Of a stretch of 35,687 nucleotides of DNA, positions 1 through 25,481 are shown piece after piece (within the stretch, counting starts at the first letter, position 1; each line of letters opens with the position of its first letter). Below the pieces are notes generated by a model. That model was given only the letters and a program-made list of their open reading frames with translations, did not search any database and was not told the origin of the DNA. Position numbers and translations under genes: made by a program. The DNA comes from an uncultured Erysipelotrichaceae bacterium (GTDB taxonomy: Bacteria > Bacillota_I > Bacilli_A > RF39 > UBA660): positions 1 to 35,687 of the forward strand of contig CACZSX010000030.1 in assembly GCA_902783915.1 (NCBI GenBank), read 5' to 3'.

Positions 1-471
1 ATCACTATAATCTTCATAATTTGGTTCGGGAAGTGGGTTATATTCTGGATTATCAATTATATCCCAACAATCAGTACAATTTAAATAAAATTCATCTATT
101 GTCATATATCCATCTTTTTGAACATCTTGATATTTTAACATATCTACTAGTGGTTTAAAATCATCAAATGTATCTTTTGTACCGGGTTTTATTGGTACAG
201 AAAAAGATCGATTATTAGATGCTTTTGGGAAACTCTTTTCATCTAAAGACATAGTTTTATTTACATATTCCCAAAATATTTTTTGGTTTTCATATGATAA
301 TTCTCCAATAGCTACCCATGAAAAATCATTATCATAATCGTTTGTATGCGTAGTTAATATATTCATATCCCATAAGTATTCAATAATTCTTTGATTTTCT
401 GGTATTACAAATTCACCAATATTTTCCATAACTGTTTTTATATCTGTTGCTACATATTCATACTTTGCCAT
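1..471 (-). CDS. hypothetical protein, first 157 codons only (gene runs off the left edge of the window)
   Basis: Not in the supplied ORF track because it has no stop inside the window. Manual minus-strand translation from ATG 471..469 (AGGAGA 6 nt upstream) gives MAKYEYVATDIKTVMENIGEFVIPENQRIIEYLWDMNILTTHTNDYDNDFSWVAIGELSYENQKIFWEY... with no stop down to position 1. The start overlaps the TGA stop (460..458) of the upstream 460-aa ORF by 14 nt. No family recognised. Confidence 0.6.
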   Translation of the reverse strand, partial: MAKYEYVATDIKTVMENIGEFVIPENQRIIEYLWDMNILTTHTNDYDNDFSWVAIGELSYENQKIFWEYVNKTMSLDEKSFPKASNNRSFSVPIKPGTKDTFDDFKPLVDMLKYQDVQKDGYMTIDEFYLNCTDCWDIIDNPEYNPLPEPNYEDYSD

Positions 472-1840
472 ATGTACTCTCCTGTTCTTTAAATCTAGAC
501 ATCCATTCTATAAATATCCAATATTCTTCACTATCTTTTATGCCTTCATACCCCTCTTCATACAATATTCTATGTATAAGTTCTTTTAATTCATTAGGTT
601 CTACCCATAACATTAATTTATCTCTTGAATTATCATCATTTGTAAAACCTTTATAATCACCATTTTCTACCGAAAATAATGCTCTACCAAGTTGAATTGA
701 ATTATATTTATCTATTGTACGTAATGATGCATTGATAAGTGCTTCTTTTTGTTCATCGTATACTATTCTTCTTGCCATATGAATATCTAACATTTCTTGC
801 ATAAGCTCTCTTATAGACTCTTTTCTAGTAAATAAATTATAGTTTCCCTCATTGGAAAATCTTTTAAAGCGTGTTATCGCTGACTCTATATCTTCTTTTT
901 TTGATATAGTTAAAAATGCATAATCATATGCCTCTTTAATCTCGTCTGGTACATCTTCAACAATTCGCAAATCTTTTCTTTCTAATCTTTCTATATTTTC
1001 AATTGCTTCTTTTACACTTTCTTTATCTTTTGCAAAACTATAAAATTTATACAAATCTATAAGTTTACTCTCTTTTCTTAATGCTATTAACAATAATTCT
1101 GTTACTCTTTGGTAATTTGCAAGCATTCTAGAAGAATTTTCAAATTTTCTTCCCCTATGAAAATCATTTATATTATTACCATTAATAAATACTTCTTTAT
1201 ATCTTTTACCTACATACTCATAAAATGAACTATATGATATCGAATCTAAATTATCTTTCATTGAATTAATATATTCACTTATCCATTCAGATACTACTAT
1301 ATTATAAGATAATTCACCATCCCATGTACATGAAATTTCTCCATCAGAAAATGTGAATGGATTTGGATCTATTAAACCTTCTTTTATATATTCATCTGAT
1401 GTTACAAATTGTTTTATTGCCAACAATGAATTTATACTATCTACTCTGATTGCCACATCATCAAATCTAGTATAATTACTTACTTTTGACATATGCGGAA
1501 TATTATATTTGGAAATAAAATCAAATAATTTATTAACTCCATGATATATGTGCAATTCATCAAGCGGTACATACATTTTTAAAAATGTTTCGGGAAATAA
1601 ATCCCCATTATATCCATAAAATTGGCAAAAATTTTTCATTTCAGGAGTTTCATATACATCTATATTTTGCACTTTATCAAATCTATCTTGCCATGAAGCA
1701 AAGTAATTTCTAATGGGTTTCTTTTCTGTTCCTAATCTAATTAAATTTGAATAAACTAAGTTTGAATCTATAGTTACTCCATTTTTTGATATTTCAGCTA
1801 TTAAATGTAGGAATTCATCAATCCTTTTTATCTTGTCCAT
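458..1840 (-). CDS. hypothetical protein, 460 aa, function unknown
   Basis: Long uninterrupted ORF. It overlaps both the upstream 51-aa ORF and the downstream partial ORF. The C-terminal half is highly charged and looks helical. I recognise no catalytic motif with confidence. Confidence 0.75.
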   Translation of the reverse strand: MDKIKRIDEFLHLIAEISKNGVTIDSNLVYSNLIRLGTEKKPIRNYFASWQDRFDKVQNIDVYETPEMKNFCQFYGYNGDLFPETFLKMYVPLDELHIYHGVNKLFDFISKYNIPHMSKVSNYTRFDDVAIRVDSINSLLAIKQFVTSDEYIKEGLIDPNPFTFSDGEISCTWDGELSYNIVVSEWISEYINSMKDNLDSISYSSFYEYVGKRYKEVFINGNNINDFHRGRKFENSSRMLANYQRVTELLLIALRKESKLIDLYKFYSFAKDKESVKEAIENIERLERKDLRIVEDVPDEIKEAYDYAFLTISKKEDIESAITRFKRFSNEGNYNLFTRKESIRELMQEMLDIHMARRIVYDEQKEALINASLRTIDKYNSIQLGRALFSVENGDYKGFTNDDNSRDKLMLWVEPNELKELIHRILYEEGYEGIKDSEEYWIFIEWMSRFKEQESTYGKV

Positions 1841-1973
1841 TAATTTTTTCTACTACCTCTTTTAAATCAATAGTATCTTCGTTGTCTTCTATATTTTTTT
1901 CTATTTCTTCTTCATCTATTCCGAAATAGAATTCTTTTTCTTTCCCATCAATAATTACTTTACCCATTCCCAT
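1818..1973 (-). CDS. small acidic protein, 51 aa (below the ORF-track size cutoff)
   Basis: Manual translation gives MGMGKVIIDGKEKEFYFGIDEEEIEKNIEDNEDTIDLKEVVEKINGQDKKD, with 17 D/E versus 8 K by hand count. An AGGTGA Shine-Dalgarno lies 6 nt upstream of ATG 1973..1971. The TGA stop at 1820..1818 overlaps the first 23 nt of the 460-aa ORF. Confidence 0.5.
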   Translation of the reverse strand: MGMGKVIIDGKEKEFYFGIDEEEIEKNIEDNEDTIDLKEVVEKINGQDKKD

Positions 1974-1998
1974 ATAATTCACCTACTATATCAATTGT

Positions 1999-2028
1999 AT
2001 TATAGCATAAAAAACAAGTAAAATGCAA
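1999..2028 (-). promoter_or_regulatory. sigma-A-type promoter for the 51-aa/460-aa/partial-ORF unit
   Basis: Minus strand reads TTGCAT (2028..2023), an 18-nt spacer, then TGcTATAAT (extended -10, hexamer 2004..1999). This is followed by the SD and ATG at 1973. It sits just downstream of the terminator at 2044-2073. Confidence 0.5.
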
Positions 2029-2043
2029 ATGAATGTAAATTTA

Positions 2044-2073
2044 CAAAAAAAGAAGAAGTTTAAAACTTCTTCT
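2044..2073 (-). terminator. rho-independent terminator ending the eight-gene operon
   Basis: Minus strand has AGAAGAAGTT-loop-AACTTCTTCT (10-bp perfect stem, 2073..2051) followed by TTTTTTG (2050..2044). The hairpin overlaps the TAG stop of the Gfo/Idh/MocA gene. Confidence 0.8.
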
Positions 2074-3013
2074 AATTACAATACTTACTACTAAAACTTG
2101 CATATTCTTTCATAATAGTACTAAAATCTATTATTCTCTTTTTATAAATTGAATTAATTCTTTTACCACTTAAATATTCATAAAAATCTTTTAAACAATA
2201 ATACATATTATCATCCACTATTTCGGCATCCATTATTTTATTTTTATCTTTATATATAACTACTCTACTATTTCTTAAACACATCAATTCTTTATCATAT
2301 ATTGAGTATTCAACGCCTATTACTACATTACCTTCGCAATATATAGTCATACCTTTATGTAATGTATTAGATGTTAAATCACATTGGTGACTTATTATTA
2401 CATTCTTATTTCTTAACATTGAAAAACTATATCCATGATTTTTTAATGTTCTATCAATATTCTGCATATCTTTTTGTTCAAGCATTAATAATTCACTTCT
2501 ATTACCAAGTAAATAATCACATATATATACTTGATGTGGTACTTCTATTTCATAGTTTTCTGTTATTTTACTACTCATTCCACGCATATTAATACTTTCA
2601 TTAATTCTATTTTTTGAAAAGTTAGTCATTATTGATTTTATTTTCAATTTATTCTTATCTAAATAATCTTTTACAAAGTTAGTTGTTAATGAATATATAT
2701 AGTTTTGAATCATAACTATATTTAATTTTGGATGTTTATTAAAGAAATCTTCTTCTACTACAAATGGTTTTTCTACAATTATGTTATAAAGTCCAAGTGA
2801 TTCACAAGTTTCAATTACTTCTACAAATACTTCTTTAGGTGTAACTATATCAACTATTACATTATTAACATCTAATTTATTATCTTTTATTACTTTCTTT
2901 ATTGGTATGTCTACATCTGCATAATATAAATTTGGTACTTTATCAAATTTCTTATATGACATTGTATGTATTCTGCTTGCTTTACCTTTTCCTACTAATA
3001 TTATATCTTTCAT
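2072..3013 (-). CDS. Gfo/Idh/MocA-family NAD(P)-dependent oxidoreductase
   Basis: N-terminal Rossmann start MKDIILVGKGKASRIH, plus the family-typical EKP motif (IIVEKPFVV). AAGGAGG RBS. The start overlaps the upstream stop by 4 nt. Confidence 0.7.
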   Translation of the reverse strand: MKDIILVGKGKASRIHTMSYKKFDKVPNLYYADVDIPIKKVIKDNKLDVNNVIVDIVTPKEVFVEVIETCESLGLYNIIVEKPFVVEEDFFNKHPKLNIVMIQNYIYSLTTNFVKDYLDKNKLKIKSIMTNFSKNRINESINMRGMSSKITENYEIEVPHQVYICDYLLGNRSELLMLEQKDMQNIDRTLKNHGYSFSMLRNKNVIISHQCDLTSNTLHKGMTIYCEGNVVIGVEYSIYDKELMCLRNSRVVIYKDKNKIMDAEIVDDNMYYCLKDFYEYLSGKRINSIYKKRIIDFSTIMKEYASFSSKYCN

Positions 3014-3978
3014 AATTCTTGTAACCTCCTTGAAATTTCTTTACAATTATTAAATAAATATTCACATAACTCTGTTCTAAAATGTGCAAATTCTAAGATA
3101 TTATTATTATCTTTTTTATAATATTCTTTATAACCATATGTACTTCTAAATAATTGGCACATATATACATATGGCATATATTTTAAATCATACTTATTAA
3201 GTGGTACACTCTTCATAAACTCCTTAACATATATTATTAAATTATCTATATCTATTTTCGCATTCTTACACTTTTTATCCATATAACTATAACTTCTAAT
3301 TATTTCCCATACAATAGGTAATTTCTTAACTCTTATAAAATCTATTATTGCATTTACTTTATCTTTATCATATATAAATTGTAAATAACTAAAATCTCCG
3401 TGTGATGTATAATGTGATATTTTACTTATATCTTTCAAATCATCTTTAAAATTATTCATCATTTCTATCTTTTTATTTAAATCAGCAACAATTAACTTAT
3501 TATTGCCTAGCTTAATTATTTCATTTAATTTTTCTATATTTTTATCAAAATCATACCAATTTTCATCTTCTATTTCTTTTGTGTCATAATTCAATAAATT
3601 CTTTACTAAAAGTCCATGAAGATAACCACATTCTTTTATCTCTTTTTTTGTTGCCGCAAATTTATCTTTTGTTGTTCCTTCTATAAAATCTTGTACAATT
3701 AAATATCTATCATTAACTTTTACTAAATATTTATCATCAATAGTTTTTAAATAAGTTGGTACTTTAATTTTATCTTTTAAATAATTTATTACTTTTACTT
3801 CTTTTTCTATTTTTTCTTTATCATATTTTTTTTGATATAACTTTAAAATATAATTATCTACTTTATATATTTCTGCTGATCCACCACTTACTAATCCAAT
3901 ATTATTTACTTTTACATTGTAATATTCTTTAAATATTTTTTTAATCTTACTTTTATTTAATACCTTCTTTTCTATCAC
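3010..3978 (-). CDS. APH/CotS/choline-kinase-like phosphotransferase (paralog 1)
   Basis: Kinase catalytic loop HGDFSYLQFIY and metal-binding IIDF motif. It is clearly paralogous to ORF 11103-12107 (WEIIRSYSYMDKKC, KYDLKYMPYVY, FRTELCEYLF). I prefer the GTG start at 3978 (GGAGG 6 nt upstream), which aligns with the paralog's N-terminus. The ORF track's ATG at 4026 would add 16 codons and lacks an SD. Confidence 0.75.
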   Translation of the reverse strand: MIEKKVLNKSKIKKIFKEYYNVKVNNIGLVSGGSAEIYKVDNYILKLYQKKYDKEKIEKEVKVINYLKDKIKVPTYLKTIDDKYLVKVNDRYLIVQDFIEGTTKDKFAATKKEIKECGYLHGLLVKNLLNYDTKEIEDENWYDFDKNIEKLNEIIKLGNNKLIVADLNKKIEMMNNFKDDLKDISKISHYTSHGDFSYLQFIYDKDKVNAIIDFIRVKKLPIVWEIIRSYSYMDKKCKNAKIDIDNLIIYVKEFMKSVPLNKYDLKYMPYVYMCQLFRSTYGYKEYYKKDNNNILEFAHFRTELCEYLFNNCKEISRRLQEL

Positions 3979-4702
3979 AAATAGCCTCCATAATTTTCTT
4001 TTCATCACCACGTATGAAATAAGCATCTATATTTAATTTTTTAATAAATTTTAATATATTTTCTCCTGTATCTTTTAATCTAACATATTTAGTAAGTAGT
4101 GGCATATCATAATGCCAATTAGAATATCTAAATATATTTTTAATATAATAATCTTTATTATCTATCTTATTTATGCTTAATTTCCCTTCTGCTGCTATTC
4201 CCTTAAGTATTACTATTTTTTCTAATTTTATTTTTTTATTAACACTCTTTTTATCTAAAAATGATATACCATTTTTATCCTTATTAAACGAACTACCTAA
4301 AACCATTTCATTAGCTTTTATCCATGTTTGATCAGCAGAATTAACTTCATACCCATACTTTGTTGCTTCAATAGCAAGAGTACTTTTTCCTACTTTAAAA
4401 TCTCCTAATATAAGTATCCCTTTATTATCTTTGCTGATAACAACTGAATGAATATATAAATTATCTTCATCATTTATTAAGTATGCGATTAAGTTATTAA
4501 GTATTGGATATATATCTGTAGTATTTACTTTAGATTCTATTTTTAATTTATAATCTAATACAGATATATCTATCAAATTATCGTTAATTATTATCTTATT
4601 ATCTGTATCTACATAATCCGCTTCAAATTGCTTTAATCTATTAAATACTGTATCAAAGGTGCTTTCTACATTGATTAAAATATTTTTAATATTAATCGTC
4701 AT
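3953..4702 (-). CDS. HprK-like P-loop protein (putative kinase), 249 aa
   Basis: YIHSVVISKDNKGILILGDFKVGKSTLAIEATKYGYEVNSADQTWI matches the HPr-kinase C-terminal pattern (H-x-x-x-V...G-x-L-I-x-G-x4-GKS...[SA]-D-[DQ]). GAGGTGG RBS. Overlaps the upstream gene by 11 nt. Confidence 0.6.
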   Translation of the reverse strand: MTINIKNILINVESTFDTVFNRLKQFEADYVDTDNKIIINDNLIDISVLDYKLKIESKVNTTDIYPILNNLIAYLINDEDNLYIHSVVISKDNKGILILGDFKVGKSTLAIEATKYGYEVNSADQTWIKANEMVLGSSFNKDKNGISFLDKKSVNKKIKLEKIVILKGIAAEGKLSINKIDNKDYYIKNIFRYSNWHYDMPLLTKYVRLKDTGENILKFIKKLNIDAYFIRGDEKKIMEAICDRKEGIK

Positions 4703-6140
4703 ATTTAACCACCTCTATAAAATTATTTTTTTCTTTTAATATATCTTCAAATATGCCATCTTTATATTTATTTACATGTACTATTTCTTTTATTAAAGAA
4801 TTCTTATTATTATTTTTTAATAATTTTTCAAATAATTTTACTCTATCAGATTTTTCTACTCCTCTTAATTCATGACCACCTACTACCAATAAATTATTTC
4901 TATGTATTAGTAATGGATCTATTAAATAATTGCTTTCTCTTGGCGTACCAATTAAGAATATTGTTTTAAATGTTTTTATGTCTTTAAAAATCATTTCTAT
5001 TACAGTACTTACTCCAGTAGTATCAATATAAGTTTCATATTTACCTATTTTATTTACTAATTTAATATTTGAATCATATTTTTTATTTAATTTTTTTATT
5101 GTGTTTTCTATATATGGTTTAATATCTTTCGTATATATATCAATATTTTTATAATTATTATCTAATAAATACATTAATGCACTTATTCCGATATTACCAA
5201 GTCCACATAATAATATATTATCTTTAAAATTAATTCTAGAAAGTGCCAAAGCACTTATCATTTCAAATCTTGAAAATGCAATTATTTCTATATCATAGTT
5301 GTAACATTTTAAACTATCTTTAAAACAAGTTATATTTTTATTCTCATGACCTTGCACAATTAAATATCTTGATTTATTTATCTTTTTAGTAATAGCCATA
5401 TATCCTTTTGAGCCACTCTTTTCAGTTCCCCTACTTACTATGTTATATTCTATTTCTCTTTCTTTTTTATTTATTTTATTATCTAAATATGAATACATTA
5501 AATCATAATTTACACCTAGTTCTTCTACCTTATGAGCATCACTACCAATAGTATATTTAATATCATATTTTTTGAATAAATCTAACATATAATTTAATTG
5601 TTCAATATTCCAAATACTTCTATCACTAGTATTTATTTCCATCATTACATTTTTCTTTTTACATTCTTTTAATATTTGATTAATTATTTTATCATGCTCT
5701 TTATAATCATCATATAATTTTAAATGTGCGAGTATATTTAGTGGATACTTTTTTACTGTATCAAGCATTGCTTTATAATATCCAGAATTATCTAAATTAA
5801 GGTATTTTGTACCATGTACACTTGATATTACATAATCAAATCCACTATTCATAAGTTCTATTTCATTATCCTGTTTTTCTTTATCAAAAAAGTAATCTGT
5901 TTCTATACCACTATGTATAGTTATACTTTTATATTCTTTTTTAGCTTTTTCTATTAATTTAAGAAACTCTTTTATTATTTTTTTATTATTTAATACTGGT
6001 TTATGATTGGGTGATGTTCTATTACCATGATCTAAGAATACTACTTCATCTATTCCTAGTTTAATACATCTATCAATGTACTTTTTCATCACCTCATAAT
6101 CAGTTACACCTTGTTTTAGATGTATATGAAAATCTTTCAT
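4692..6140 (-). CDS. fusion protein: HisJ-type PHP phosphoesterase (N-terminal) plus Rossmann-fold MDR-like dehydrogenase module (C-terminal)
   Basis: The N-terminal ~230 aa carries PHP motifs in order: DFHIH, FLDHG, GIETD, SSVHG, AHL, EINTS, GSDAH. The C-terminal ~240 aa carries a dinucleotide-binding loop LLCGLGNIGISALMYLL and a GGHE-type segment. GGAGAA RBS. Confidence 0.65.
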   Translation of the reverse strand: MKDFHIHLKQGVTDYEVMKKYIDRCIKLGIDEVVFLDHGNRTSPNHKPVLNNKKIIKEFLKLIEKAKKEYKSITIHSGIETDYFFDKEKQDNEIELMNSGFDYVISSVHGTKYLNLDNSGYYKAMLDTVKKYPLNILAHLKLYDDYKEHDKIINQILKECKKKNVMMEINTSDRSIWNIEQLNYMLDLFKKYDIKYTIGSDAHKVEELGVNYDLMYSYLDNKINKKEREIEYNIVSRGTEKSGSKGYMAITKKINKSRYLIVQGHENKNITCFKDSLKCYNYDIEIIAFSRFEMISALALSRINFKDNILLCGLGNIGISALMYLLDNNYKNIDIYTKDIKPYIENTIKKLNKKYDSNIKLVNKIGKYETYIDTTGVSTVIEMIFKDIKTFKTIFLIGTPRESNYLIDPLLIHRNNLLVVGGHELRGVEKSDRVKLFEKLLKNNNKNSLIKEIVHVNKYKDGIFEDILKEKNNFIEVVKYDD

Positions 6141-7555
6141 TATTTCTCCATATATAAACTATAGTATTTATCTAATATGCCTGATTCATTAATCCATTCA
6201 TCTACTATATTTACTTCTAACTTATTTTCTAGAGTTTCTTTATTAATCATGTTATATACTGTAAGAAGCTGTGCTGCTTTAAATACATCATTACTCTTAT
6301 TAGGGATAGCTTCTGAATCAAATAAGTTTACACTTCTTCCGTTTCCTAATACATCTACATGTTTACCAAATACATAATATTGAGTTCCATATTTATCTAT
6401 TTTCTTAAATACTTCACCCCTTGCTTCAAATTCTCTAAATGCATGAAGGTCAGCTGTTGCACCGCTTGTTACATATCCATAATCTGGAAGCATTTTTATT
6501 ACATCTTCACTTATACTTTTATAACCAGATGCTCCTACTATCATAAATGGTTTTTCGTTTTTAACTGCATCATAACAATTTTTATAAGTTGTAAATCCTC
6601 TTTCAGCTGCTATTATAAGTCTTAATACATCTACATCTACTACTGTTACTCTAACGCCATAACTTCTTAATCTATCTGCAAGTATTTCTCCTAAATCACC
6701 ATATCCGCACATTACCACACTTCTACCTACTAATTTTTCACCCGCAAGTAATTCTATTATTCTTGTAAATATACTACTAGATATTTCAGTATAAGTAATA
6801 TGTCTTTTTAATTTAGTCTTTGCAACATTAAGTACTGGATATAATAATTTATCTTCATTTGGTCTTATTCTTCTTAATCCCATTTCAGTAAGTTCTACTA
6901 CACCTACTACATTATCAAAATGTACTTTATCTAATATCTTAGTCACTATCGCGCCATCATCTAATACTACTACTTTTAAATTTTTTCTTTTATTAATAAA
7001 ATCAAATATTAATTCTTCACCAATTTTCATCAATTTATCATTATCTACATCAGTATTATCAAGTACACTTACATTAAAACCCATCTTTTTAAATGTTTCA
7101 GTTATTTCAAATCTATGTTTTGTACTGTCACCTTTATCAATAGCAAGTATATTTTCTGGTTTAACACCCATATTAACAAATCCATTTAGAAGTCCTACAT
7201 TTTCTTCTAAGAAGTGATCTCTCCAAATAAGAGCTACATTATTTAATGTATTTTTATGATTTGAACTATACCAATTTATTACAGGCATATCTCTTACTAT
7301 TGCTTCTATCTCAAAGTCTGAATACGCTAAACAAATCTTATTTACTAAATCATAATCTACATCTACTGCCATAAGTTCCAATCCAGGCTCTGCAAATCTA
7401 GTAACAGAAAAACTTCTTATAGGTAATTCCTTTTCTTTAAATTTGATATATCCATCACCTATTATTATCTTATCATCTTTAATTTTATAACTTATCTTTA
7501 AGTTATCAAGTTTCTTTTTTAAATCTTCTAAACTCCCATAAAAATTCCTATTCAT
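6140..7555 (-). CDS. S-adenosyl-L-homocysteine hydrolase-like NAD-binding protein with an N-terminal extension
   Basis: GRSVVMCGYGDLGEILADRLRSYGVRVTVVDVDVLRLIIAAERGF aligns with the AHCY NAD-domain signature (GK-x-VVV-x-GYGDVGKG-x-A...V-x-V-TE-x-DP-x-x-A-x-x-A-x-x-EG). The upstream segment MPVINW...NVALIWRDHFLEENVGLLNGFVNMG parallels the AHCY substrate domain but has diverged residues. AAGGAGGA RBS. Confidence 0.6.
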   Translation of the reverse strand: MNRNFYGSLEDLKKKLDNLKISYKIKDDKIIIGDGYIKFKEKELPIRSFSVTRFAEPGLELMAVDVDYDLVNKICLAYSDFEIEAIVRDMPVINWYSSNHKNTLNNVALIWRDHFLEENVGLLNGFVNMGVKPENILAIDKGDSTKHRFEITETFKKMGFNVSVLDNTDVDNDKLMKIGEELIFDFINKRKNLKVVVLDDGAIVTKILDKVHFDNVVGVVELTEMGLRRIRPNEDKLLYPVLNVAKTKLKRHITYTEISSSIFTRIIELLAGEKLVGRSVVMCGYGDLGEILADRLRSYGVRVTVVDVDVLRLIIAAERGFTTYKNCYDAVKNEKPFMIVGASGYKSISEDVIKMLPDYGYVTSGATADLHAFREFEARGEVFKKIDKYGTQYYVFGKHVDVLGNGRSVNLFDSEAIPNKSNDVFKAAQLLTVYNMINKETLENKLEVNIVDEWINESGILDKYYSLYMEK

Positions 7556-8252
7556 AAATCCTCCTTATACTCTCTTTGAATAAATCTTCTTTTTTTAAAT
7601 TACTACACATTGGTAAATGTGTTTCTAAAGATATAATTGTATCTTTATTAATCATATTTAATATTTTGTCTATATTTATTTCCCCATCATACAGATAAAC
7701 AAACTTTCCACCTTTAATATCTCTTAAATGAATATAAACTATATCATCTTTTAATAATCTTAAAGCTTCAATATAATCCAAATTCAAACTATAATAATTT
7801 TCAGCATCATATAATAATTTAATATTGCTATATTTTTTATTCATTAATTCTTTTAAATATATATAACTTTCACCTTTAGTACCTTTTTCATTTTCAATTA
7901 ATAAAGTTATATTATTTTCTTTTGCTATATTATTATATTTTTCTATATCAGATACATCTGTAAATATTCTTAAATACTTACATTTAAATATCTTACAAAT
8001 ATTAATGTATTTAATAAATAATTTGTTTTCTTTATCATAACTATACTTATGCTTACCAATAGGACTATCTATTAATGAAACTTTATAATTATTTAATTTC
8101 TTATTTATTAATCTTAATTCACCTGTATCTATTTCAAATAAATACTTATCATTTATTTTTCTCAATTCTACATATTCCAATTTAGTTTCTTCTAATATTT
8201 TTATTAATGAATCGATATCACTTGATACTTCATCAGTAATTACACTTACCAT
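7548..8252 (-). CDS. xylose-isomerase-like TIM-barrel protein (sugar-phosphate isomerase/epimerase family)
   Basis: The pattern is typical of AP_endonuc_2/IolE-IolI-like barrels: YVELR near the N-terminus, YLRIF, LLIENE, LLYDAEN, YIHLRD and SLETH. At 234 aa it is short for the family. The start lies inside the upstream stop region (ATGGTAA). Confidence 0.6.
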   Translation of the reverse strand: MVSVITDEVSSDIDSLIKILEETKLEYVELRKINDKYLFEIDTGELRLINKKLNNYKVSLIDSPIGKHKYSYDKENKLFIKYINICKIFKCKYLRIFTDVSDIEKYNNIAKENNITLLIENEKGTKGESYIYLKELMNKKYSNIKLLYDAENYYSLNLDYIEALRLLKDDIVYIHLRDIKGGKFVYLYDGEINIDKILNMINKDTIISLETHLPMCSNLKKEDLFKESIRRIYE

Positions 8253-9295
8253 AATGTTTTTCTTAATACCTTTTCTAAGTAAGTACTACTTGTATCTTTC
8301 GTATACTCTACTTCAATAATTGGAATATGTGTTATTAAATCTTCATTTAATTCTTGTTTTCTTCTTTCTATTTCTTCTATAGATACAACTCTATGTCTTA
8401 GCCATTCTCTTCTTTCATTTTCTCTATCATTTGGTGTAAAATTTGTTTCATTCAATCTTCTTATTGCTTCTTCTTTACCTAAATAACTATATCTTTCAGT
8501 ATCAGTTATTCTTGGAAATATTATTAAATCTATTTTACTTTTATCAATATTTTCTATATTAGGAAATATCTTTGGTACATCTTTTAGTGGTACATCACAT
8601 TTAGTACCATCACTGCATGTTTTATAATCTTTACCTCTTCTTTTTTCTAATGCATGAGTTCTTCTAAAATATTGATCTAAATTTCTATTTGCTCTTGCTG
8701 TACCCATCGCGTATATAATGGGAAGTGGATAATAATGCATCATTCTATTTTTTACAAATACTCTATCATTAGATATGAATCTTTCTTTAGTATCTAATTC
8801 ACTTAATTTAGTCATAAACGTTGTTTTACCACTACCAGAATTACCGAGTAAAAGTATTCCTTTATCAAATACCTCTATACCTGTACCATGCATATAAAAG
8901 TATCCTTTATCTTCCATTTCTCTTATTAATAATTCTCTAACTATCCAACTTAATCCTTTTATTGTTCCAAATAATTTATAATTATTATCATTTGTTTTAA
9001 TGCACATATACTCTTCTGTATCAATTAAATATTGACTACCATTTTTTAAATGTGTTTGATTTTTAAATGTAGAAATAACTATAGCTTCTTTTTTATTAAA
9101 ACTATTTACTAATGCATCTAATATATCCTTATCTCTATCAAAATAAATATTATAAGTAGCCACTACTTTTTCATTACATGGTGTAACAAAATTACTAAAA
9201 TATCTTTCTACTTCTTCTACATCTTCTGTAAATATATTGAAAAGGACTCCATTAATGTTTAATACTTTTTTTCTTAATTTTTTCACTAATTTCAT
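8246..9295 (-). CDS. HprK-like P-loop protein (putative kinase), 349 aa
   Basis: MHGTGIEVFDKGILLLGNSGSGKTTFMTKLSELDTKERFISNDRVFV matches the HPr kinase pattern LHG-x-x-V-x-x-x-G-x-G-V-L-I-x-G-x-SG-x-GKS...ADDRV. The start is uncertain. ATG 9295 abuts the AGGGAG SD, while GTG 9286 has a 9-nt spacing and may be the true start. Confidence 0.65.
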   Translation of the reverse strand: MKLVKKLRKKVLNINGVLFNIFTEDVEEVERYFSNFVTPCNEKVVATYNIYFDRDKDILDALVNSFNKKEAIVISTFKNQTHLKNGSQYLIDTEEYMCIKTNDNNYKLFGTIKGLSWIVRELLIREMEDKGYFYMHGTGIEVFDKGILLLGNSGSGKTTFMTKLSELDTKERFISNDRVFVKNRMMHYYPLPIIYAMGTARANRNLDQYFRRTHALEKRRGKDYKTCSDGTKCDVPLKDVPKIFPNIENIDKSKIDLIIFPRITDTERYSYLGKEEAIRRLNETNFTPNDRENERREWLRHRVVSIEEIERRKQELNEDLITHIPIIEVEYTKDTSSTYLEKVLRKTLW

Positions 9296-10076
9296 CTCCC
9301 TTCACTCTATCACCAATTTCTATTTCTGGTTTAGCAATAGGTCCATGATAATCACTGCCTGCACTTATTAATAATTTTTTTGCTATACATAACTTATGAA
9401 TATAATCTTCTTCTTCATCATTATGCTTAGTAGTAAATACTTCAACACCATCCAATCCATAATGCACTAGTTCATCAATTACTGAATCTATTACTACATT
9501 CTGTTTTCTTACTATTTCAAATGGATGCGCTAGAATTGCAATACCATCATGTTCTTTTATTTCACCAATTATTTTTTCTGCATCTTGTCTTATCTTAGGT
9601 CCTATTTTATATCTACCTAATATTTCATTAAATGCTTTATTAACAGATGGAGCATATCCATTCTTTACTAAGAACTTAGATATTTCTACTTTACCAACAC
9701 ATGTGCTTTCAGTATTATAAAAATAATTTATATCCTCTTCAGTAAATCTATAACCTTTTTTTATTAAGTCTTCTAATATTTCAAGAGTAAGTTCTTTTCT
9801 TGTCCTTTGAACAAATTCACAAGTATTTCTTAATTTTGAATCATAATCAACACCATATCCAAGTATGTGCATTTTAGTGCCATTACTTACTGCGCTCATC
9901 TCTACACCTGGTATATATGTAATATTTGGTATTGTTTCTAATACTTTTATACTTTCTACACTATCATGATCTGTTATTGAAAATAATTCAACTTTTTTAG
10001 CTTTAAGCATATCAATAAGTTCACTAATATTTTTATCACCATCTGAAAATGTTGAATGAATATGTAAGTCAATCAT
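9252..10076 (-). CDS. PHP-family metal-dependent phosphoesterase (TrpH/YciV-like)
   Basis: Motifs MIDLHIHSTFSDGD, ITDHD, GVEMS, MHILGY, LAHP, GVEVF and SAGSDYHGP. The start is set at ATG 10076 (GAGGAG upstream), which gives the family-typical N-terminus. The ORF track's 10148 start would add 24 unlikely residues that run into the promoter region. Confidence 0.8.
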   Translation of the reverse strand: MIDLHIHSTFSDGDKNISELIDMLKAKKVELFSITDHDSVESIKVLETIPNITYIPGVEMSAVSNGTKMHILGYGVDYDSKLRNTCEFVQRTRKELTLEILEDLIKKGYRFTEEDINYFYNTESTCVGKVEISKFLVKNGYAPSVNKAFNEILGRYKIGPKIRQDAEKIIGEIKEHDGIAILAHPFEIVRKQNVVIDSVIDELVHYGLDGVEVFTTKHNDEEEDYIHKLCIAKKLLISAGSDYHGPIAKPEIEIGDRVKGDEISEKIKKKSIKH

Positions 10077-10150
10077 GGGCGCACACTCCTCTCTACTTAC
10101 ATAATACACAAGATTTTTGAATAAAAAAAATACATATTTTTTATACATCC

Positions 10151-10165
10151 ATAACTTTAAGTTAT
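10151..10165. promoter_or_regulatory. candidate LysR-type regulator binding site (T-N11-A palindrome)
   Basis: ATAACTT-T-AAGTTAT is a perfect 7-bp inverted repeat with a 1-nt centre, and it contains T-N11-A. It lies between the divergent LysR gene and the eight-gene operon and directly abuts the LysR -35 box. It is about 55 bp upstream of a candidate minus-strand -10 (TATTAT, 10106..10101). Confidence 0.55.
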
Positions 10166-10172
10166 ATTTCTG

Positions 10173-10200
10173 TTGACATATCTAAAAATATATATATAAT
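10173..10200 (+). promoter_or_regulatory. sigma-A-type promoter of the LysR gene
   Basis: TTGACA (10173-10178), a 16-nt spacer, then TATAAT (10195-10200). GAGGTGA SD precedes ATG 10219. Confidence 0.65.
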
Positions 10201-10218
10201 AAAAATCGAGGTGATAGT

Positions 10219-11088
10219 ATGAATATAAGTTTTGAATATTATAAAACCTTCTGTGTGGTTTCAGAAAGCAAAAGTATTACAGAAGCAGCTGAAAAATTAA
10301 TGATCTCACAGCCCGCTATCACAAAAACTATTAAAATATTAGAAAATGAAATTGGCAGTAGTCTATTTAATAGAAGTCATTCCGGAATAAGGCTTACAAG
10401 TGAAGGAGAAAGGCTTTATGCATATGTAAAACCACTAATGCTCCAATTAGATGAAACTAAGAATGTAATGGATGAAATTATTGGTGATGGTAAAATGAAT
10501 ATAAGAATTGGTACATCTATTACAGTATTAAGAATGTTCTTAATTGAGTATATAGAAAAATATACAAAAGAACATCCAAATGTTCATATATATGTAGAAG
10601 ATAATACAAATAATAACTTGATTACTAAGATTAAAGAAGGTGCTATTGATATAGCAATAATAATTTCAAGTTATAACTATGTTAATAAGTATTCAAATAT
10701 AACTAGATACAAAATAGAAGATTTAACATATGGGTTATTCTGTAGTGATAGTTATATGGAGAATTTAAATAAGTCTGTAAGTGTACAAGATATTAAAGAT
10801 AAAAACTTTATAATAAATGTTAATACTACTGAAATAAATAAATTCTATCAGAATCATAAATTAAATAATCATTTAAGCGTTGCATCTAACTCATTTATCA
10901 TAGATTTTGTTAAAGCGGGAGTTGGTATTGGAATGGTTATAAGAGAGTTTGGTGAAAAAATATATGGAATACATGAAATAAAAGTAAAAGAAGAACTACC
11001 AAAATCTGAATTAGTAGCTCTTACAAATAATAATAAATATCATAGTATAGCAATATCTTATTTCTTAAATGGATTATTAAAAAAATAA
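10219..11088 (+). CDS. LysR-family transcriptional regulator
   Basis: N-terminal winged-HTH: FEYYKTFCVVSESKSITEAAEKLMISQPAITKTIKILENEIGSSLFNRSHSGIRLTSEGERLY. At 289 aa it has the typical length with a C-terminal co-inducer domain. It is divergent from the adjacent operon. Confidence 0.9.
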   Translation: MNISFEYYKTFCVVSESKSITEAAEKLMISQPAITKTIKILENEIGSSLFNRSHSGIRLTSEGERLYAYVKPLMLQLDETKNVMDEIIGDGKMNIRIGTSITVLRMFLIEYIEKYTKEHPNVHIYVEDNTNNNLITKIKEGAIDIAIIISSYNYVNKYSNITRYKIEDLTYGLFCSDSYMENLNKSVSVQDIKDKNFIINVNTTEINKFYQNHKLNNHLSVASNSFIIDFVKAGVGIGMVIREFGEKIYGIHEIKVKEELPKSELVALTNNNKYHSIAISYFLNGLLKK

Positions 11089-11104
11089 AAGACTAATGTC
11101 TTTT
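11087..11104. terminator. short bidirectional hairpin between the convergent LysR and APH-like genes
   Basis: AAAAGAC-TAAT-GTCTTTT, flanked by A-run and T-run. It overlaps both stop codons. The stem is only 7 bp and AT-rich, so strength is uncertain. Confidence 0.4.
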
Positions 11105-12107
11105 ATTTTAATTTTAATAATTCTTTCGATATCTTTTCTAAATTATCATATAAGTAATTACATAGATTAGTTCTAAAGAATGCAAAATCTAGTAATGAAG
11201 TTTTAGTATAATCATTATTATATTGTTTATAACCAAATGTACTTGATACTAATTGAAATATATAAATATATGGCATATATTTTAGATCATACTTTGTTAA
11301 TTTTATATATTTTTGTACTTCTTTAACGTAATCAATAAATGTATTTAGATTAAATTCTCCATTTGCGCATTCTTTATCAATATAACTATAACTTCTTATT
11401 ATTTCCCAATCAATTGGCATCTTTCTTACTGTTTCAAAATCTATTACAGCTGTTTCCTTATTATCATTATATATTAACTGTTGTACTGAATAATCTCCAT
11501 GGCATATTTTTAATGTTACCTTTTTAATATCTTTAAAATTAAAATCTAATAGTTCTTTAGATATTTCTATTCTTCTTTTTAAATCAGATATTATTTTATC
11601 TTTATATGGATTATCTTCCTTTATCTTAGTTATTAAATCACTTAGTTTATTTATTCCCTCTTCTAATCCTTCTTTAGTTGGATAATCATTATATGCACTA
11701 TCTAGTTCATAATCTTCTAATGCTTTAGTTAATTTACCTAATATAGTGGCTGATTCAATTGTCTTATAATAATCACCTGTATTATTAGGAATTGCATATC
11801 CATCAAGATATACTTGAAGTATTATTATTTTTTTCTCATATAAAATATATGGATTACCAAACTTTGTTTCTACATATGTTGGGACTTTTAATCCTTTACT
11901 ATCTAAATGTTTAATTACACTATATTCTTTTTCAATAGAAGATATTTCTCTATCACTAGTAAATTCTTTTAATATATATTTATTATCTATATTAAATATA
12001 TTAGCACTACCTCTATTAATTCTTTCAACTTTTGATACTTTAATGCCATAATTATCTTTCAATAATTCTTTAATTAAATCTTCTGTTAATACACTATCTT
12101 CTAACAT
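11103..12107 (-). CDS. APH/CotS/choline-kinase-like phosphotransferase (paralog 2)
   Basis: HGDYSVQQLIY catalytic loop and VIDFETV motif. The C-terminal half is highly similar to ORF 3010-3978. It is the last gene of the hisS-aspS chain and overlaps the upstream gene by 14 nt. Confidence 0.8.
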   Translation of the reverse strand: MLEDSVLTEDLIKELLKDNYGIKVSKVERINRGSANIFNIDNKYILKEFTSDREISSIEKEYSVIKHLDSKGLKVPTYVETKFGNPYILYEKKIIILQVYLDGYAIPNNTGDYYKTIESATILGKLTKALEDYELDSAYNDYPTKEGLEEGINKLSDLITKIKEDNPYKDKIISDLKRRIEISKELLDFNFKDIKKVTLKICHGDYSVQQLIYNDNKETAVIDFETVRKMPIDWEIIRSYSYIDKECANGEFNLNTFIDYVKEVQKYIKLTKYDLKYMPYIYIFQLVSSTFGYKQYNNDYTKTSLLDFAFFRTNLCNYLYDNLEKISKELLKLK

Positions 12108-17141: not shown

Positions 17142-17543
17142 TTATTTTAAATCTTTGTCAAATAATTCTTTTAAAAATGGAACTATATTATCAAGTTTAT
17201 CTATATTTTTAATTAACTTATATTCAGAATGTTCTATATTTAGTTTTATATTTTCAATACTATCATTTAATTCACATAGATATACAAGTCTTATAAATAT
17301 CATGTTTTTTACTTTGTCCAAATTACTATCTTCATGTATTATTTTAGTCGGAATTACATTTAGATTTACTTCTTCTTTTGTTTCTCTTATTGCTGCATTT
17401 TTTGGTAATTCACCATATTCTACCATACCCCCTGGTATATCCCAACAATCTGGATATGGATCTTCATCCTTACTTCTTCTAATAATCAAATATTCATCAT
17501 TATACTTTATAAGTACATGTACTATTATTCTATTCCCATTCAT
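17142..17543 (-). CDS. Nudix hydrolase
   Basis: Nudix box GGMVEYGELPKNAAIRETKEEVNL (G-x5-E-x7-REUxEExGU). It lies 33 nt downstream of the MetK-like gene with no terminator between them. Confidence 0.85.
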   Translation of the reverse strand: MNGNRIIVHVLIKYNDEYLIIRRSKDEDPYPDCWDIPGGMVEYGELPKNAAIRETKEEVNLNVIPTKIIHEDSNLDKVKNMIFIRLVYLCELNDSIENIKLNIEHSEYKLIKNIDKLDNIVPFLKELFDKDLK

Positions 17544-17576: not shown

Positions 17577-18359
17577 TTAATATAGTCCCCATTCTGCAAA
17601 TTTTTCAAATCCACCAACACTCTTAATATAATTTCTAGCTATTTCTACTATTTCACTATATGGTTTATTATCTACATATTCATCTCCTATTGCACAACTA
17701 ATTTCAATAGTTTTATTTTCTTTTTGCGCTTTTAAAAATGCATATATATTTATACTTACATCCGCTTTAGATAAATCTTTACCATGTAATCCACCCCCAG
17801 TAATACTTCCTGCCATATCACTACCTAGTTTTCTATTAGTAGCTCCAGAATCAACATTAGTACCACCACTCCATTCTCCAAGCGGATTAATAATAGCTTT
17901 TTTATATATTTTTCTTAAGTCGTTAGTTTTACAATTACTTTGGCATATAACTAATTTATTTTTATCCAATATATATTTACCATCATATGGATATTTACTA
18001 TAAATATCTCTTGCTATTTTAGATAACTTCTTTTCTTCTTTAGTAAGTGGAACTCCTTTAAATATTCCATTATCTCCACATCTGAGTTTTCCTATTTGGT
18101 TATTAGCAAGATATATATCTTGCTTTACAATTTGTAAATCTAATTTAATATTACCTGCAATCCTTTTTACAATATTATTTACTTCATTTTTATTAAACTT
18201 TTCACTAGTCTCAATTATTATATGACAATTTCCATGCCCAATTAATACTTCTACTGCTACTTTAGGATTGTTATTTTTTAAATATGCAATATCTACTATT
18301 GCTCCTGCAATTCTATCTGCCACTTTATCAGGATGACTTGGGTTTACTTTTTCTATCAT
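17577..18359 (-). CDS. metK: compact MetK-like protein (putative S-adenosylmethionine synthetase), 260 aa
   Basis: SHPDKVADRIAGAIVD matches GHPDKIADQISDAVLD. CGDNGIFKG matches GAGDQGLMFG. INPLGEWSGG...ATNRKLGSDMAGSITGGGLHGKDLSKADVS matches INPTGRFVIGGP...TGRKIIVDTYGG...GGGAFSGKDPSKVDRS. It is about 120 aa shorter than canonical bacterial MetK and is preceded by a SAM-I riboswitch. Confidence 0.65.
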   Translation of the reverse strand: MIEKVNPSHPDKVADRIAGAIVDIAYLKNNNPKVAVEVLIGHGNCHIIIETSEKFNKNEVNNIVKRIAGNIKLDLQIVKQDIYLANNQIGKLRCGDNGIFKGVPLTKEEKKLSKIARDIYSKYPYDGKYILDKNKLVICQSNCKTNDLRKIYKKAIINPLGEWSGGTNVDSGATNRKLGSDMAGSITGGGLHGKDLSKADVSINIYAFLKAQKENKTIEISCAIGDEYVDNKPYSEIVEIARNYIKSVGGFEKFAEWGLY

Positions 18360-18510
18360 TTTACTTCCTTTCTATCCCATAAAAAAATGCCCAAGATAAC
18401 TCCTGCGCACAAAGTTATCTTATAGATCTAGCATTACCACCTAATTTAATAGGTTGGTGTGATTTCATTGGGCTAGTCCCTCAATCACTCTTTATAAGAT
18501 AATTAAATTA
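18360..18510 (-). promoter_or_regulatory. SAM-I (S-box) riboswitch with hairpin/U-run expression platform
   Basis: Minus strand reads TCTTATAAAGAGTGATTGAGGGACTAGCCCAATGAAATCACACCAACC...AGGTGGTAATGCTAGATCTATAAGA, which matches the S-box core (CTTATCAAGAG..GAGGGACTGGCCC.ATGAA...GCAACC...GGTGCTAA...AGATAAG). The P1 helix is TCTTATA/TATAAGA (18509..18418). Downstream is the hairpin AAGATAACT-loop-AGTTATCTT followed by GGGCATTTTTTT. A -10 TATAAT lies at 18522..18517. Confidence 0.85.
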
Positions 18511-24568: not shown

Positions 24569-24572
24569 ACTT

Positions 24573-25481
24573 CTATTTACCTCCTTCTATGGTTGTACCA
24601 GTTTTTCCTTCTATTGCAAACTTGGCTTTTGCTAAAGATGTTATTATTGCTTTGCCCTTACTATGTTTAGCAAATTCGATACATGCTTCTATTTTAGGAA
24701 GCATAGATCCTTCAGCAAACTCCTTGTTCTCAATACATTTTTTAGCTTGTGTTAAATTTAATCTATCTATTTTCTTTTCATTAGGTTTATTAAAATTAAG
24801 TGATACTCTATTTACAGTAGTAAGAATTAATAGAATATCTGCTTTTAATTTAATTGCTAATAATGAACTTGTCCTATCTTTATCTATTACTGCGTCTACA
24901 CCTTTATATCCAATTCTATCTTTTATTACTGGAATACCTCCACCACCACATGCAACTACTATATTCTTATCTTTAATTAATTTTTCTATTGTTGATAGTT
25001 CACAAATCTTAATTGGTTTTGGAGAAGGTACTACTTTTCTATAACCTCTTCCTGCATCTTCTTTAAATATGCCTAATCCTTGTTTTATAAATGTTTCTGC
25101 TTCTTCTTTTGTATAAAAATTACCTATTGGTTTAGTGGGATTTTTAAAAGCATAATCATTTTTATCTACTAAAACTTGTGTAATTACTGCTGATACATTC
25201 TTTTTTATTTTTCTTCTTTCTAATTCCTTCTGTATTGATTGCACTAAATGATAACCAATATAGCCTTCACTCATTGCACCACATTCTGCAAAAGGAAAAT
25301 CTAACTTACTCATTTCTTTATAAATTATTCCTACTTGTGGACCATTACCATGTGTAATAACTATCTCATGACCCATATCTACTAAATCAACCAATCTTTT
25401 TGCTGTTATTCTTGTATTTTTTAATTGTTCTTCTACTGTATTACCTAGTGCATTACCACCAAGTGCAACAACTATTCTCAT
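24573..25481 (-). CDS. arcC: carbamate kinase
   Basis: [22 protein letters not shown] and CGGGGIPV motifs. 302 aa. Overlaps the arcB stop. Confidence 0.9.

Follow-up and report, generated by a model that had tools for sequence, protein, structure and literature searches.

The window analysed here, a stretch of 35,687 nt (positions 1 to 35,687, forward strand) of contig CACZSX010000030.1 from an uncultured Erysipelotrichaceae bacterium (assembly GCA_902783915.1), contains eight minus-strand genes that form a genuine LysR-linked operon of kinases, phosphoesterases and NAD enzymes (genes 1 to 8 in order of transcription; Table 1). No characterised pathway matches such a gene set. Gene 4 belongs to an enzyme family with the S-adenosylhomocysteine hydrolase (SAHH) fold that includes the Her4-position protein of a herbicidin-type gene cluster, and some of its relatives are fused to a Gfo/Idh/MocA-type oxidoreductase of the kind encoded by gene 8. 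The gene set, its conservation, the placement of the enzymes in families and the fusion were observed directly. The best explanation that can be offered is that the operon directs the biosynthesis of a modified nucleoside or nucleotide, which may be high-carbon, and that a Her4/Her5-like pair of enzymes stands at the centre of this pathway. We regard this as a serious possibility to be held tentatively, and our confidence in any single mechanistic step is much lower.

The product of gene 4 had been labelled AHCY-like in the initial annotation of this DNA. The SAHH fold with its NAD domain stands, but the protein represents a distinct family and is not AHCY proper. In the AlphaFold2 model (predicted local distance difference test score 86.5) it is predicted to have the two-domain SAHH fold; the top 50 Foldseek matches are all SAHH or SAHH-like, with E-values down to 6e-22, and template-modelling (TM) scores of 0.53-0.67; the leading SAHH matches have TM scores of 0.57-0.67 and identity of about 20%. 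Relative to SAHH there is an extra N-terminal beta domain of 65 residues. The DDG, E-T-G, K250 and catalytic-lysine positions are kept, and equivalents of K186 and D131/E156 (human SAHH numbering) are retained in the HMMER alignment, whereas D190/N191, H301 and H353 of SAHH have no counterparts and are replaced by T/Y, A/T and I. The adenosylhomocysteinase model TIGR00936 gives 76.2 bits, below its cut-off of 497.6. Given this score, the incomplete catalytic set and the low identity to SAHH, adenosylhomocysteinase was rejected as the identity of gene 4. An exact look-up of the protein sequence gave no record.

A tblastn search of annotated plasmids returned ten matches to gene 4, all from Streptomyces or Kitasatospora, and nine of these, all Streptomyces, are 33-35% identical over 83-88% of gene 4 (E-values 1e-54 to 1e-62). 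A 541-aa plasmid protein of S. cadmiisoli, annotated as a ‘hypothetical protein’, scores 227 bits with 34.6% identity to gene 4, compared with at most 55 bits for any solved SAHH. Its neighbours are a B12-binding radical S-adenosylmethionine (SAM) protein, a canonical and a divergent Gfo/Idh/MocA protein, a beta-lactamase-type serine hydrolase, an AMP-binding enzyme and an ABC transporter. Since these correspond to the Her4/5/6/7/9 gene set tabulated for the herbicidin/aureonuclemycin cluster (PMC6794829), the locus is taken to be of that type. Gene 4 is 31-35% identical to SAHH-fold proteins of Streptomyces of 540 aa, and an alignment of the gut, Her4-position and fused members of the family contains 41 common invariant positions, which places gene 4 with the Her4-position protein. 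The family motifs are RDH(F/Y), KGD-T, DDG, E-T--G, K250, Y255-E257, AT-D and G-G-S-NL. The initial annotation had named a nucleoside or a sugar/cyclitol as the scaffold, and this kinship strengthens the case for the nucleoside.

The family is a large one. A profile search of 1.84 billion cluster representatives found 112 relatives of gene 4 at E < 1e-30, mostly of 500-560 aa, and single 90%-identity clusters of the gene 4 protein hold up to 499 member sequences. Source names of the distant relatives are uninformative (‘hypothetical’, ‘adenosylhomocysteinase’).

The second member of the proposed pair is gene 8. Its protein has no direct Pfam match, and it is read as a divergent Gfo/Idh/MocA-type oxidoreductase because the EKP motif is invariant in its family, the family profile matches solved Gfo/Idh/MocA structures (3db2 at E 1e-4), and a 26%-identical homologue in a variant locus (L033) passes PF01408 with 25.1 bits against a cut-off of 24. 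An SAHH-fold domain is fused to a Gfo/Idh/MocA domain in several representatives of 50%-identity clusters (P0134, P0149, P0154), in 907-aa proteins of Streptomyces plasmids and in Phaeobacter. The gene 8 family matches the Gfo domains fused to the Her4-like enzyme with an hhalign probability of 96% (E 3.9e-9), and it also matches the divergent Gfo of the her-like cluster (probability 96%). The motif FSK(N/D)R is common to all three. The fusion constitutes a Rosetta-stone link between genes 4 and 8.

Other fused proteins were set aside. P0047, a class II aldolase joined to an AHCY-like domain, was rejected because amino-acid composition changes abruptly at the junction and it is probably a chimeric metagenome assembly. 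P0041 and P0121, in which a short linker connects a TIM barrel and an AHCY-like domain, the products of two neighbouring genes, were not used as evidence, since they may result from read-through or sequencing error.

The same genes are found in the same order in about 20 distinct metagenomic lineages, with protein identities of 36-58%. The hosts of the gene 4 relatives are uncultured Bacilli and Clostridia of the goat, rumen, rabbit, chicken and human gut. In the gut comparison, which comprised 34 fetched loci with near-duplicates included (numbered with the prefix L), the families of the second PHP protein (PHP2) and the TIM barrel were each present in 31 loci, the Gfo family in 30, the APH and second P-loop families in 29 each, that of the first PHP protein (PHP1) in 25 and that of the first P-loop protein in 23. 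A gene for UDP-glucose 6-dehydrogenase, of either a TuaD-like or a Ugd-like subtype, adjoins the cluster in 24 of the 34, that is, in nearly all loci with enough flanking sequence. A sugar-nucleotide epimerase of the short-chain dehydrogenase/reductase family occurs at 15 gut loci. Further accessories are a second APH kinase, one or two MutT-like NUDIX hydrolases, a 195-aa protein of unknown function, a P-loop protein resembling nucleoside monophosphate (NMP) kinases and a CobC-like histidine phosphatase. Some clusters are variants that also contain genes for an acetyltransferase, an acyl-AMP ligase and hydrolases, and glycosyltransferases are found with variants L024, L026, L030, L033 and L036.

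In L001 (11397-12716) and L009, the TuaD-like dehydrogenase gene lies between the last operon gene and a gene for a 460-aa protein. The AHCY-like protein of relatives of this type is 96% identical to that of gene 4, and at the corresponding position the window (1840-2072) and its relative L043 have only about 230 bp. The dehydrogenase has therefore been gained or lost between close strains. The 460-aa protein itself (window 458-1840, minus strand) has no Pfam or PADLOC match and is found downstream of the cluster in close relatives; its counterparts in L001 and L009 are 59-60% identical, and L043 has a 51-aa open reading frame (ORF) just upstream.

Conservation also extends beyond the Firmicutes. 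Several Streptomyces plasmids and pSCL4 of S. clavuligerus carry a seven-gene operon beside a divergent XRE regulator, in the order P-loop protein, P-loop protein, Rossmann protein, ‘AP endonuclease’, APH kinase, 907-aa Her4-like/Gfo fusion and P-loop protein; in S. clavuligerus ATCC 27064 it lies at about 1,419,000-1,427,200 of CP045850. A Phaeobacter contig encodes the fusion protein, both types of P-loop protein, the Rossmann protein and an APH kinase, together with a HAD phosphatase; no TIM barrel was recognised in this locus. On a high-GC contig (L036), the APH kinase gene adjoins that of the fusion protein, and a further Gfo/Idh/MocA gene, glycosyltransferases, an MFS transporter and a BTAD regulator are also present. 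By these comparisons the core enzyme set is conserved across three phyla. The initial annotation had proposed a search for joint occurrence of the genes in other genomes, and such co-occurrence was found both in the gut lineages and in Streptomyces.

Two relatives of gene 4 have unusual neighbours. In L033 (5408-17879), a 37%-identical AHCY-like gene directly follows genes for a Cap15-like cyclic-nucleotide-receptor protein and an AbiEi/AbiEii pair, and is followed by genes for the Rossmann protein, a GT2 glycosyltransferase, two small radical SAM proteins, a further GT2, a GT64 and the Gfo homologue, so that neighbours typical of a defence island are mixed with glycosyltransferases. In Streptomyces sedi (L037, GCA_039537025.1, 9001-15337), an nSTAND1-trypsin-WD40 protein has as its neighbour a protein of 748 aa whose AHCY-like region is partial. 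Some 5 kb from there lie two APH genes, a gene for a DegT aminotransferase and one that is DHQ-synthase-like, a set resembling those for aminocyclitols.

Distant members of the SAHH-fold superfamily (P0256, P0194, P0204) have as fusion partner a STAND-like AAA ATPase, a PRTase-CE domain or a cytidine/dCMP deaminase, and this points to a part for some branches of the family in conflict systems that centre on nucleotides. The operon itself might serve conflict or defence by making or destroying a nucleotide, for example a toxic analogue produced upon phage infection, with the phosphatases shielding the host. These fusions would accord with such a role, as would the position of the L033 relative directly after Cap15-like and AbiEi/AbiEii proteins, the location of the Streptomyces copies on plasmids (one near a restriction endonuclease, another beside the nSTAND1 protein) and the varied genomic contexts of different lineages. 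However, PADLOC-DB v2 matched no defence component among the ten window proteins scanned, apart from two chance-level P-loop matches (E 0.002-0.005), and no homologue was found among 50,697 phage records. The conserved core has no sensor or effector module, and the operon lies among housekeeping genes (YvcK, AspRS, HisRS) with a host-like composition. A ligand-type LysR regulator and a linked supply of UDP-sugar suit metabolism better. A defence role is thus not favoured, and we consider it very unlikely.

The superfamily readings that the initial annotation gave for all eight proteins were confirmed by Pfam, NCBIfam, profile and structural evidence, those of gene 7 (APH) and gene 8 (Gfo/Idh/MocA) as probable. 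No NCBIfam equivalog model reaches its cut-off for any operon protein, all scores being far below, and neither these models nor PADLOC identify any of the proteins, so that the earlier verdict of no nameable pathway holds. The operon is also, as had been stated, without a transporter, glycosyltransferase or aminotransferase gene. Literature searches on the combination of HprK, PHP and adenosylhomocysteinase, or of homocysteine hydrolase and MocA, found nothing relevant.

Genes 2 and 6 encode P-loop proteins in which the P-loop is followed by an SNDR/SADQ motif, an arrangement like that of HPr kinase. In the gene 2 family the Walker A sequence GNSGSGKTT and the SNDR motif are invariant. The AlphaFold2 model of gene 2 (score 94) has ATP-dependent phosphoenolpyruvate carboxykinase (PEPCK) as its best Foldseek match (TM about 0.5, E 1e-8), followed by HprK/P (E 2e-5). 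Placement in the PEPCK/HprK fold is by structure for gene 2, and gene 6 is joined to it through an hhalign match to the gene 2 family (probability 97%, E 7.5e-11). Both are accordingly assigned to the PEPCK/HprK superfamily, and their two-domain architecture is that of a small-molecule kinase. The earlier HprK-like label was right as to superfamily, but for gene 2 the resemblance to ATP-dependent PEPCK is equally strong. HPr kinase/phosphorylase identity is not supported, as the scores stay below cut-off, Hpr_kinase_C giving 26.3 bits for gene 2 and 20.2 bits for gene 6 (cut-off 33.3) and TIGR00679 27.5 bits (cut-off 240).

Gene 2 also shows a weak match, over residues 30-190, to the model of the FomB-family phosphonate monophosphate kinase (2.3e-6, 26.9 bits against a cut-off of 400). 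In the FomA/FomB system fosfomycin is converted to the mono- and then to the diphosphate, and gene 2, with its PEPCK/HprK fold, similarly has a partner kinase that is built on another fold and might carry out the first phosphorylation. By contrast, the candidate first kinase has the APH fold here rather than the amino-acid-kinase fold, and there are no phosphonate genes.

That candidate, gene 7, carries the motifs HGDFSYLQ (HGD) and IDF and is 38% identical (E 1e-65) to a second APH/CotS-type kinase encoded just beyond the LysR gene. In Clostridia-type loci an orthologue of kinase 2 (54-58% identical) stands directly upstream of the first PHP gene. The eight genes of the initial annotation stand as a unit, but the unit is larger, since the paralogous kinase belongs to the system; in most relatives it also takes in NUDIX hydrolases and UDP-glucose 6-dehydrogenase, often together with the epimerase.

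The two PHP proteins differ in their nearest relatives. For gene 1 the top NCBIfam model is that of the 3',5'-nucleoside bisphosphate phosphatase (3.6e-35, 121.5 bits, cut-off 400), and the RNase RNM model gives 110.1 bits (cut-off 375); these are the best-matching models, but as both equivalog cut-offs are missed gene 1 was not assigned to either enzyme. Gene 5 scores 69.3 bits with hisJ_fam (TIGR01856), below the cut-off of 90.2, and was likewise not accepted as a HisJ-family histidinol phosphatase. Its C-terminal half is a truncated Rossmann domain of the medium-chain dehydrogenase/reductase (MDR) type, whose profile matches sorbitol dehydrogenase (5e-7) and galactitol-1-phosphate 5-dehydrogenase (3e-6) in the PDB. 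The two halves of gene 5 are separate genes in L024, L026 and L030, and the Rossmann half stands alone in L033, L035, L038 and L042. The family profile of gene 3, the TIM barrel, matches Art22 best (2e-9), followed by MJ1311, AsbF, IolI and IolE; Art22, a PDB entry, is not mentioned in the aurantinin papers.

These relatives allow for chemistry in which no nucleoside takes part. The operon might remodel a sugar phosphate or cyclitol phosphate, the SAHH-fold enzyme transiently oxidising a phosphorylated sugar, with the Gfo/Idh/MocA enzyme and the TIM barrel proceeding via 3-keto-sugars to a rare sugar, its phosphate or its nucleotide, which would be handed to glycosyltransferases. The TIM-barrel profile is nearest to IolI, IolE, AsbF, 3-keto-glucoside 4-epimerase and ketose 3-epimerases, the Rossmann domain is nearest to polyol dehydrogenases of the two kinds just named, and APH-fold kinases include anomeric sugar kinases. 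UDP-glucose dehydrogenase and epimerase genes are linked to the cluster, and glycosyltransferases occur in its variants. On the other hand, the fold and the nearest characterised relatives of gene 4 work on nucleosides or nucleotides, and PHP1 and the NUDIX enzymes indicate nucleotides as well. There is no nucleotidyltransferase for activating a new sugar, and operons of the window type and of Streptomyces are without a glycosyltransferase. We judge sugar remodelling of this kind to be unlikely.

Parts of two catabolic pathways had also been seen in the operon by the initial annotation. Superfamilies of Gfo/Idh/MocA enzymes and TIM barrels do occur together in inositol (iol) and 3-keto-glycoside pathways, and the gene 3 profile matches IolI, IolE and 3-keto-glucoside 4-epimerase, but the matches to iol enzymes are remote (E 1e-5 or worse), and gene 8 groups with the Gfo domains fused to the Her4-like enzyme. 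Inositol catabolism was rejected, since the IolE model gives 22 bits against 290 and none of the ten proteins matches IolB, IolC, IolD or IolJ. Methylthioribose/5-deoxyribose salvage was also rejected, as no MtnA/DrdI-type isomerase or aldolase model matched any of the ten. These two likenesses thus reflect shared superfamilies only, whereas the third, to nucleoside chemistry, has been strengthened. Accessories of a nucleotide type are found here and in relatives: PHP1 is closest to nucleoside 3',5'-bisphosphate phosphatase/RNase RNM, and MutT-like NUDIX, CobC-like histidine phosphatase and NMP-kinase-like P-loop proteins occur in related clusters. The cytidine/dCMP deaminase and PRTase domains fused to distant SAHH-fold relatives have the same flavour.

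More generally, the operon might serve LysR-induced catabolism or salvage of an unusual dietary or host nucleoside or sugar. LysR regulators commonly govern catabolic operons, the pairing of Gfo/Idh/MocA enzymes with TIM barrels is typical of inositol and 3-keto-glycoside catabolism, and the hosts are gut dwellers. Yet a transporter, glycosidase, phosphorylase and aldolase are absent from all versions of the cluster, and the same core is found on plasmids of soil Streptomyces and in marine Phaeobacter. Kinases together with phosphatases, and the link to UDP-glucose dehydrogenase and epimerase, are anabolic signatures. Catabolism is the least probable of the explanations considered here.

That the eight genes form one transcription unit is indicated by their layout. 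Eight minus-strand ORFs are listed (Table 1), and the listing bears out the overlapping or abutting junctions reported earlier (9295/9252, 8252/8246, 7555/7548, 6140/6140, 4702/4692 and 3013/3010), as well as the shorter starts proposed for genes 1 (10076) and 7 (3978). These starts agree with gene calls in the near-identical contigs L001 and L043 (274 aa and 322-323 aa, respectively); a ribosome-binding site, GAGAGGAG, lies upstream of 10076, and the alignment of the long ORF of gene 7 to the paralogous kinase starts only at residue 17. Thus, all three observations support the shorter starts. Between 10076 and 2051 the minus strand has a single terminator-like site, the hairpin at 2073-2051, which sits directly 3' of the stop codon of gene 8.

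The initial annotation was right about the divergent LysR gene, the T-N11-A palindrome and the terminator, all of which were found as described there. The regulator combines HTH_1 and LysR_substrate domains with a T-N11-A site in the divergent promoter, the features of a LysR-type regulator, and a LysR gene occupies the same position in L001-L003, L009-L011 and L043. Within the palindrome, ATAAC-N5-GTTAT is kept in L001, L009, L010 and L011, whereas the flanking intergenic DNA has diverged; it is the best-conserved intergenic block in relatives whose LysR proteins are just 70-78% identical. Such conservation amid diverged DNA is a phylogenetic footprint. The hairpin downstream of kinase 2 lies inside the LysR gene, at its 3' end, the two genes being convergent and on opposite strands.

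GC content at third codon positions is 0.114 for the operon and 0.103 for flanking genes. Composition, which the initial annotation had proposed to compare with the flanks, is therefore alike, with no sign of recent import, and recent horizontal acquisition was rejected. Neither at the cluster in the window nor in seven related loci did Rfam detect a riboswitch or any other RNA element, so there is no RNA-based clue to a ligand. A ribosomally synthesized and post-translationally modified peptide with a modifying kinase was rejected as a further reading, since the core contains no conserved small ORF or maturase.

Table 1. Features of the operon and its immediate surroundings (positions in the window; cut-offs are those of the respective models).
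Feature	Position	Strand	Basis
Gene 1, TrpH/YciV-type PHP phosphoesterase, 274 aa	9252..10076 (ORF to 10148)	-	Pfam PHP (PF02811) 29.7 bits, cut-off 26.4
Gene 2, PEPCK/HprK-superfamily P-loop protein 1, putative small-molecule kinase	8246..9295	-	Fold, Walker A
Gene 3, xylose-isomerase-like TIM barrel (AP_endonuc_2)	7548..8252	-	PF01261 39.3 bits, cut-off 31.1
Gene 4, Her4-like SAHH-fold NAD enzyme	6140..7555	-	AdoHcyase_NAD 42.2 bits, above cut-off
Gene 5, HisJ-type PHP fused to truncated MDR-type Rossmann domain	4692..6140	-	PHP 53.4 bits, cut-off 26.4
Gene 6, PEPCK/HprK-superfamily P-loop protein 2, paralogue of gene 2	3953..4702	-	hhalign
Gene 7, APH/CotS-type kinase 1	3010..3978 (ORF to 4026)	-	Pfam APH (PF01636) 22.0 bits, just under cut-off 23.2
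Gene 8, divergent Gfo/Idh/MocA-type oxidoreductase	2072..3013	-	EKP motif, profile, L033 homologue
Intrinsic-terminator-like hairpin closing the operon	2051..2073	-	10-bp stem, 3-nt loop, T run
Predicted LysR box, palindrome ATAACTTTAAGTTAT (T-N11-A)	10151..10165	.	Sequence reading
Promoter-like site of the LysR gene, TTGACA-16-TATAAT	10173..10200	+	12/12 consensus positions, top of scan; consensus match only
LysR-family regulator, divergent from the operon	10219..11088	+	HTH_1 3.9e-18, LysR_substrate 1.1e-18, both above Pfam cut-off
Terminator-like hairpin after APH kinase 2	10991..11022	-	12-bp stem, T-rich tail; consensus match only
APH/CotS-type kinase 2, conserved accessory, separately transcribed here	11103..12107	-	Pfam APH 32.9 bits, passes

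Biosynthesis of a modified nucleoside or nucleotide, the explanation that we prefer, might proceed as follows. In SAHH-fold enzymes the bound NAD+ transiently oxidises the ribose 3'-OH, enabling elimination and re-addition at C5'. Tightly bound NAD+ in the gene 4 enzyme would likewise oxidise the 3'-OH of a 5'-phosphorylated nucleoside; elimination of the 5' leaving group would then give a 3'-keto-4',5'-ene that could accept a nucleophile before re-reduction, as in SAHH and, reportedly, in Her4. Her4 and Her5 reportedly couple C5' of ADP or ATP to UDP- or TDP-glucuronate, a result attributed to Chen et al. in JACS in 2022, and UDP-glucuronate is said to be their co-substrate. The gene 8 enzyme would oxidise the partner substrate, for which UDP-glucuronate would be the most likely choice, as most relatives carry a UDP-glucose 6-dehydrogenase gene next to the cluster. 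Keto intermediates may be isomerised, epimerised or reduced by the metal-dependent TIM barrel and the truncated MDR Rossmann domain. The two APH kinases and the two PEPCK/HprK-like proteins would phosphorylate hydroxyls, or perhaps phosphates in the manner of FomB, possibly to a mono- and then a diphosphate, and the added phosphates might serve as leaving groups or keep intermediates charged and inactive. The two PHP phosphatases, with NUDIX enzymes in relatives, would take the phosphates off again, and the LysR protein might sense an intermediate or the product.

The closest known system is of the herbicidin type. The early steps of herbicidin and aureonuclemycin biosynthesis (Her4/AnmB, Her5/AnmC, Her7/AnmD) involve the same divergent SAHH-fold family as gene 4, and there too the SAHH-fold enzyme is paired with a divergent Gfo/Idh/MocA protein bearing FSK(N/D)R. 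In the gut relatives of the operon, moreover, a gene for the supply of UDP-glucuronate adjoins the cluster. The differences are considerable. The operon is without a B12 radical SAM enzyme, methyltransferase or serine hydrolase, whereas the P-loop proteins, APH kinases, TIM barrel, truncated MDR Rossmann domain and PHP phosphatases that it does contain are absent from the her, anm and hcd clusters. The hosts are Streptomyces in the one case and uncultured low-GC gut Firmicutes in the other, and the herbicidin tricycle cannot be what the operon makes. With just anmB-E (SAHH-like protein, two oxidoreductases and radical SAM protein), the undecose nucleoside aureonuclemycin can be produced (PMC6794829, PMC10339500). 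No radical SAM gene occurs in the window or in gut-type loci L001-L032, and this core cassette is thus not complete in them.

Several points weigh against the proposed nucleoside pathway. Without a radical SAM enzyme, the product cannot be herbicidin-like beyond the first steps. UDP-glucose dehydrogenase, NUDIX and epimerase genes are lacking in the window and its 99% relative L043, and also in the Streptomyces operons, and the conserved core has no exporter or resistance gene. Kinship to Her4 was assessed by comparison with the Her4-position protein of a her-like gene set only, and the Her5-like label of gene 8 comes from a profile match and one shared motif. The adenine-binding residues of SAHH cannot be mapped in gene 4, whose substrate could be a non-nucleoside sugar. 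Substrates, order of steps and product are what we infer.

A more specific version of the proposal is that Her4/Her5-type C-C or C-heteroatom coupling, followed by the action of the PEPCK-like kinases, yields a previously unseen phosphorylated, possibly high-carbon nucleoside or nucleotide analogue that acts as an antimetabolite against competitors or phages, and that this compound is made by common uncultured gut Firmicutes and, in parallel, by Streptomyces (S. clavuligerus with pSCL4 among them) and Phaeobacter. We regard this version as doubtful.

Other features of the window were noted in passing. A SAM-I riboswitch (Rfam RF00162, 67.5 bits) at 18417-18500 (minus strand) precedes a gene at 17577-18359 (minus strand) for a 260-aa protein whose match to methionine adenosyltransferase is confined to the N-terminal domain (metK model 48.9 bits, cut-off 309); a NUDIX gene follows at 17142-17543 (minus strand). 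It is unusual for so short a MetK to be controlled by an S-box. Genes for a full arginine deiminase pathway lie at 23102-27708 (minus strand): arcA (520.9 bits) and arcC (359 bits), together with genes for ornithine carbamoyltransferase and for an antiporter of basic amino acids that resembles YfcC. This fits a small-genome fermentative gut organism. The gene at 27777-29144 (minus strand) encodes a 455-aa protein with an RsgI-like anti-sigma central domain (86 bits) and a long, repetitive C-terminal region rich in Cys, Tyr and Gly.

The known Her4-type SAHH-fold enzymes belong to a single rare class of nucleoside antibiotics, made by Streptomyces. The family now proves to be large, as its 112 representatives indicate, and to form part of a second enzyme system, which spans several phyla, is common in gut metagenomes and is apparently unstudied. 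The herbicidin-type system shares only the enzyme pair with it; the complement of kinases, phosphatases and TIM barrel is unprecedented, and the host range is unexpected. Because the core is present in cultured, genetically tractable Streptomyces, the question of its function is directly testable. If the product is a nucleoside analogue, the operon would represent a new bioactive metabolite of gut commensals and would provide a function for many orphan ‘HprK-related’ P-loop proteins. If that analogue is in addition an antimetabolite, it would belong to a new class of nucleoside natural products, made with a new enzymology of small-molecule kinases of the PEPCK/HprK fold.

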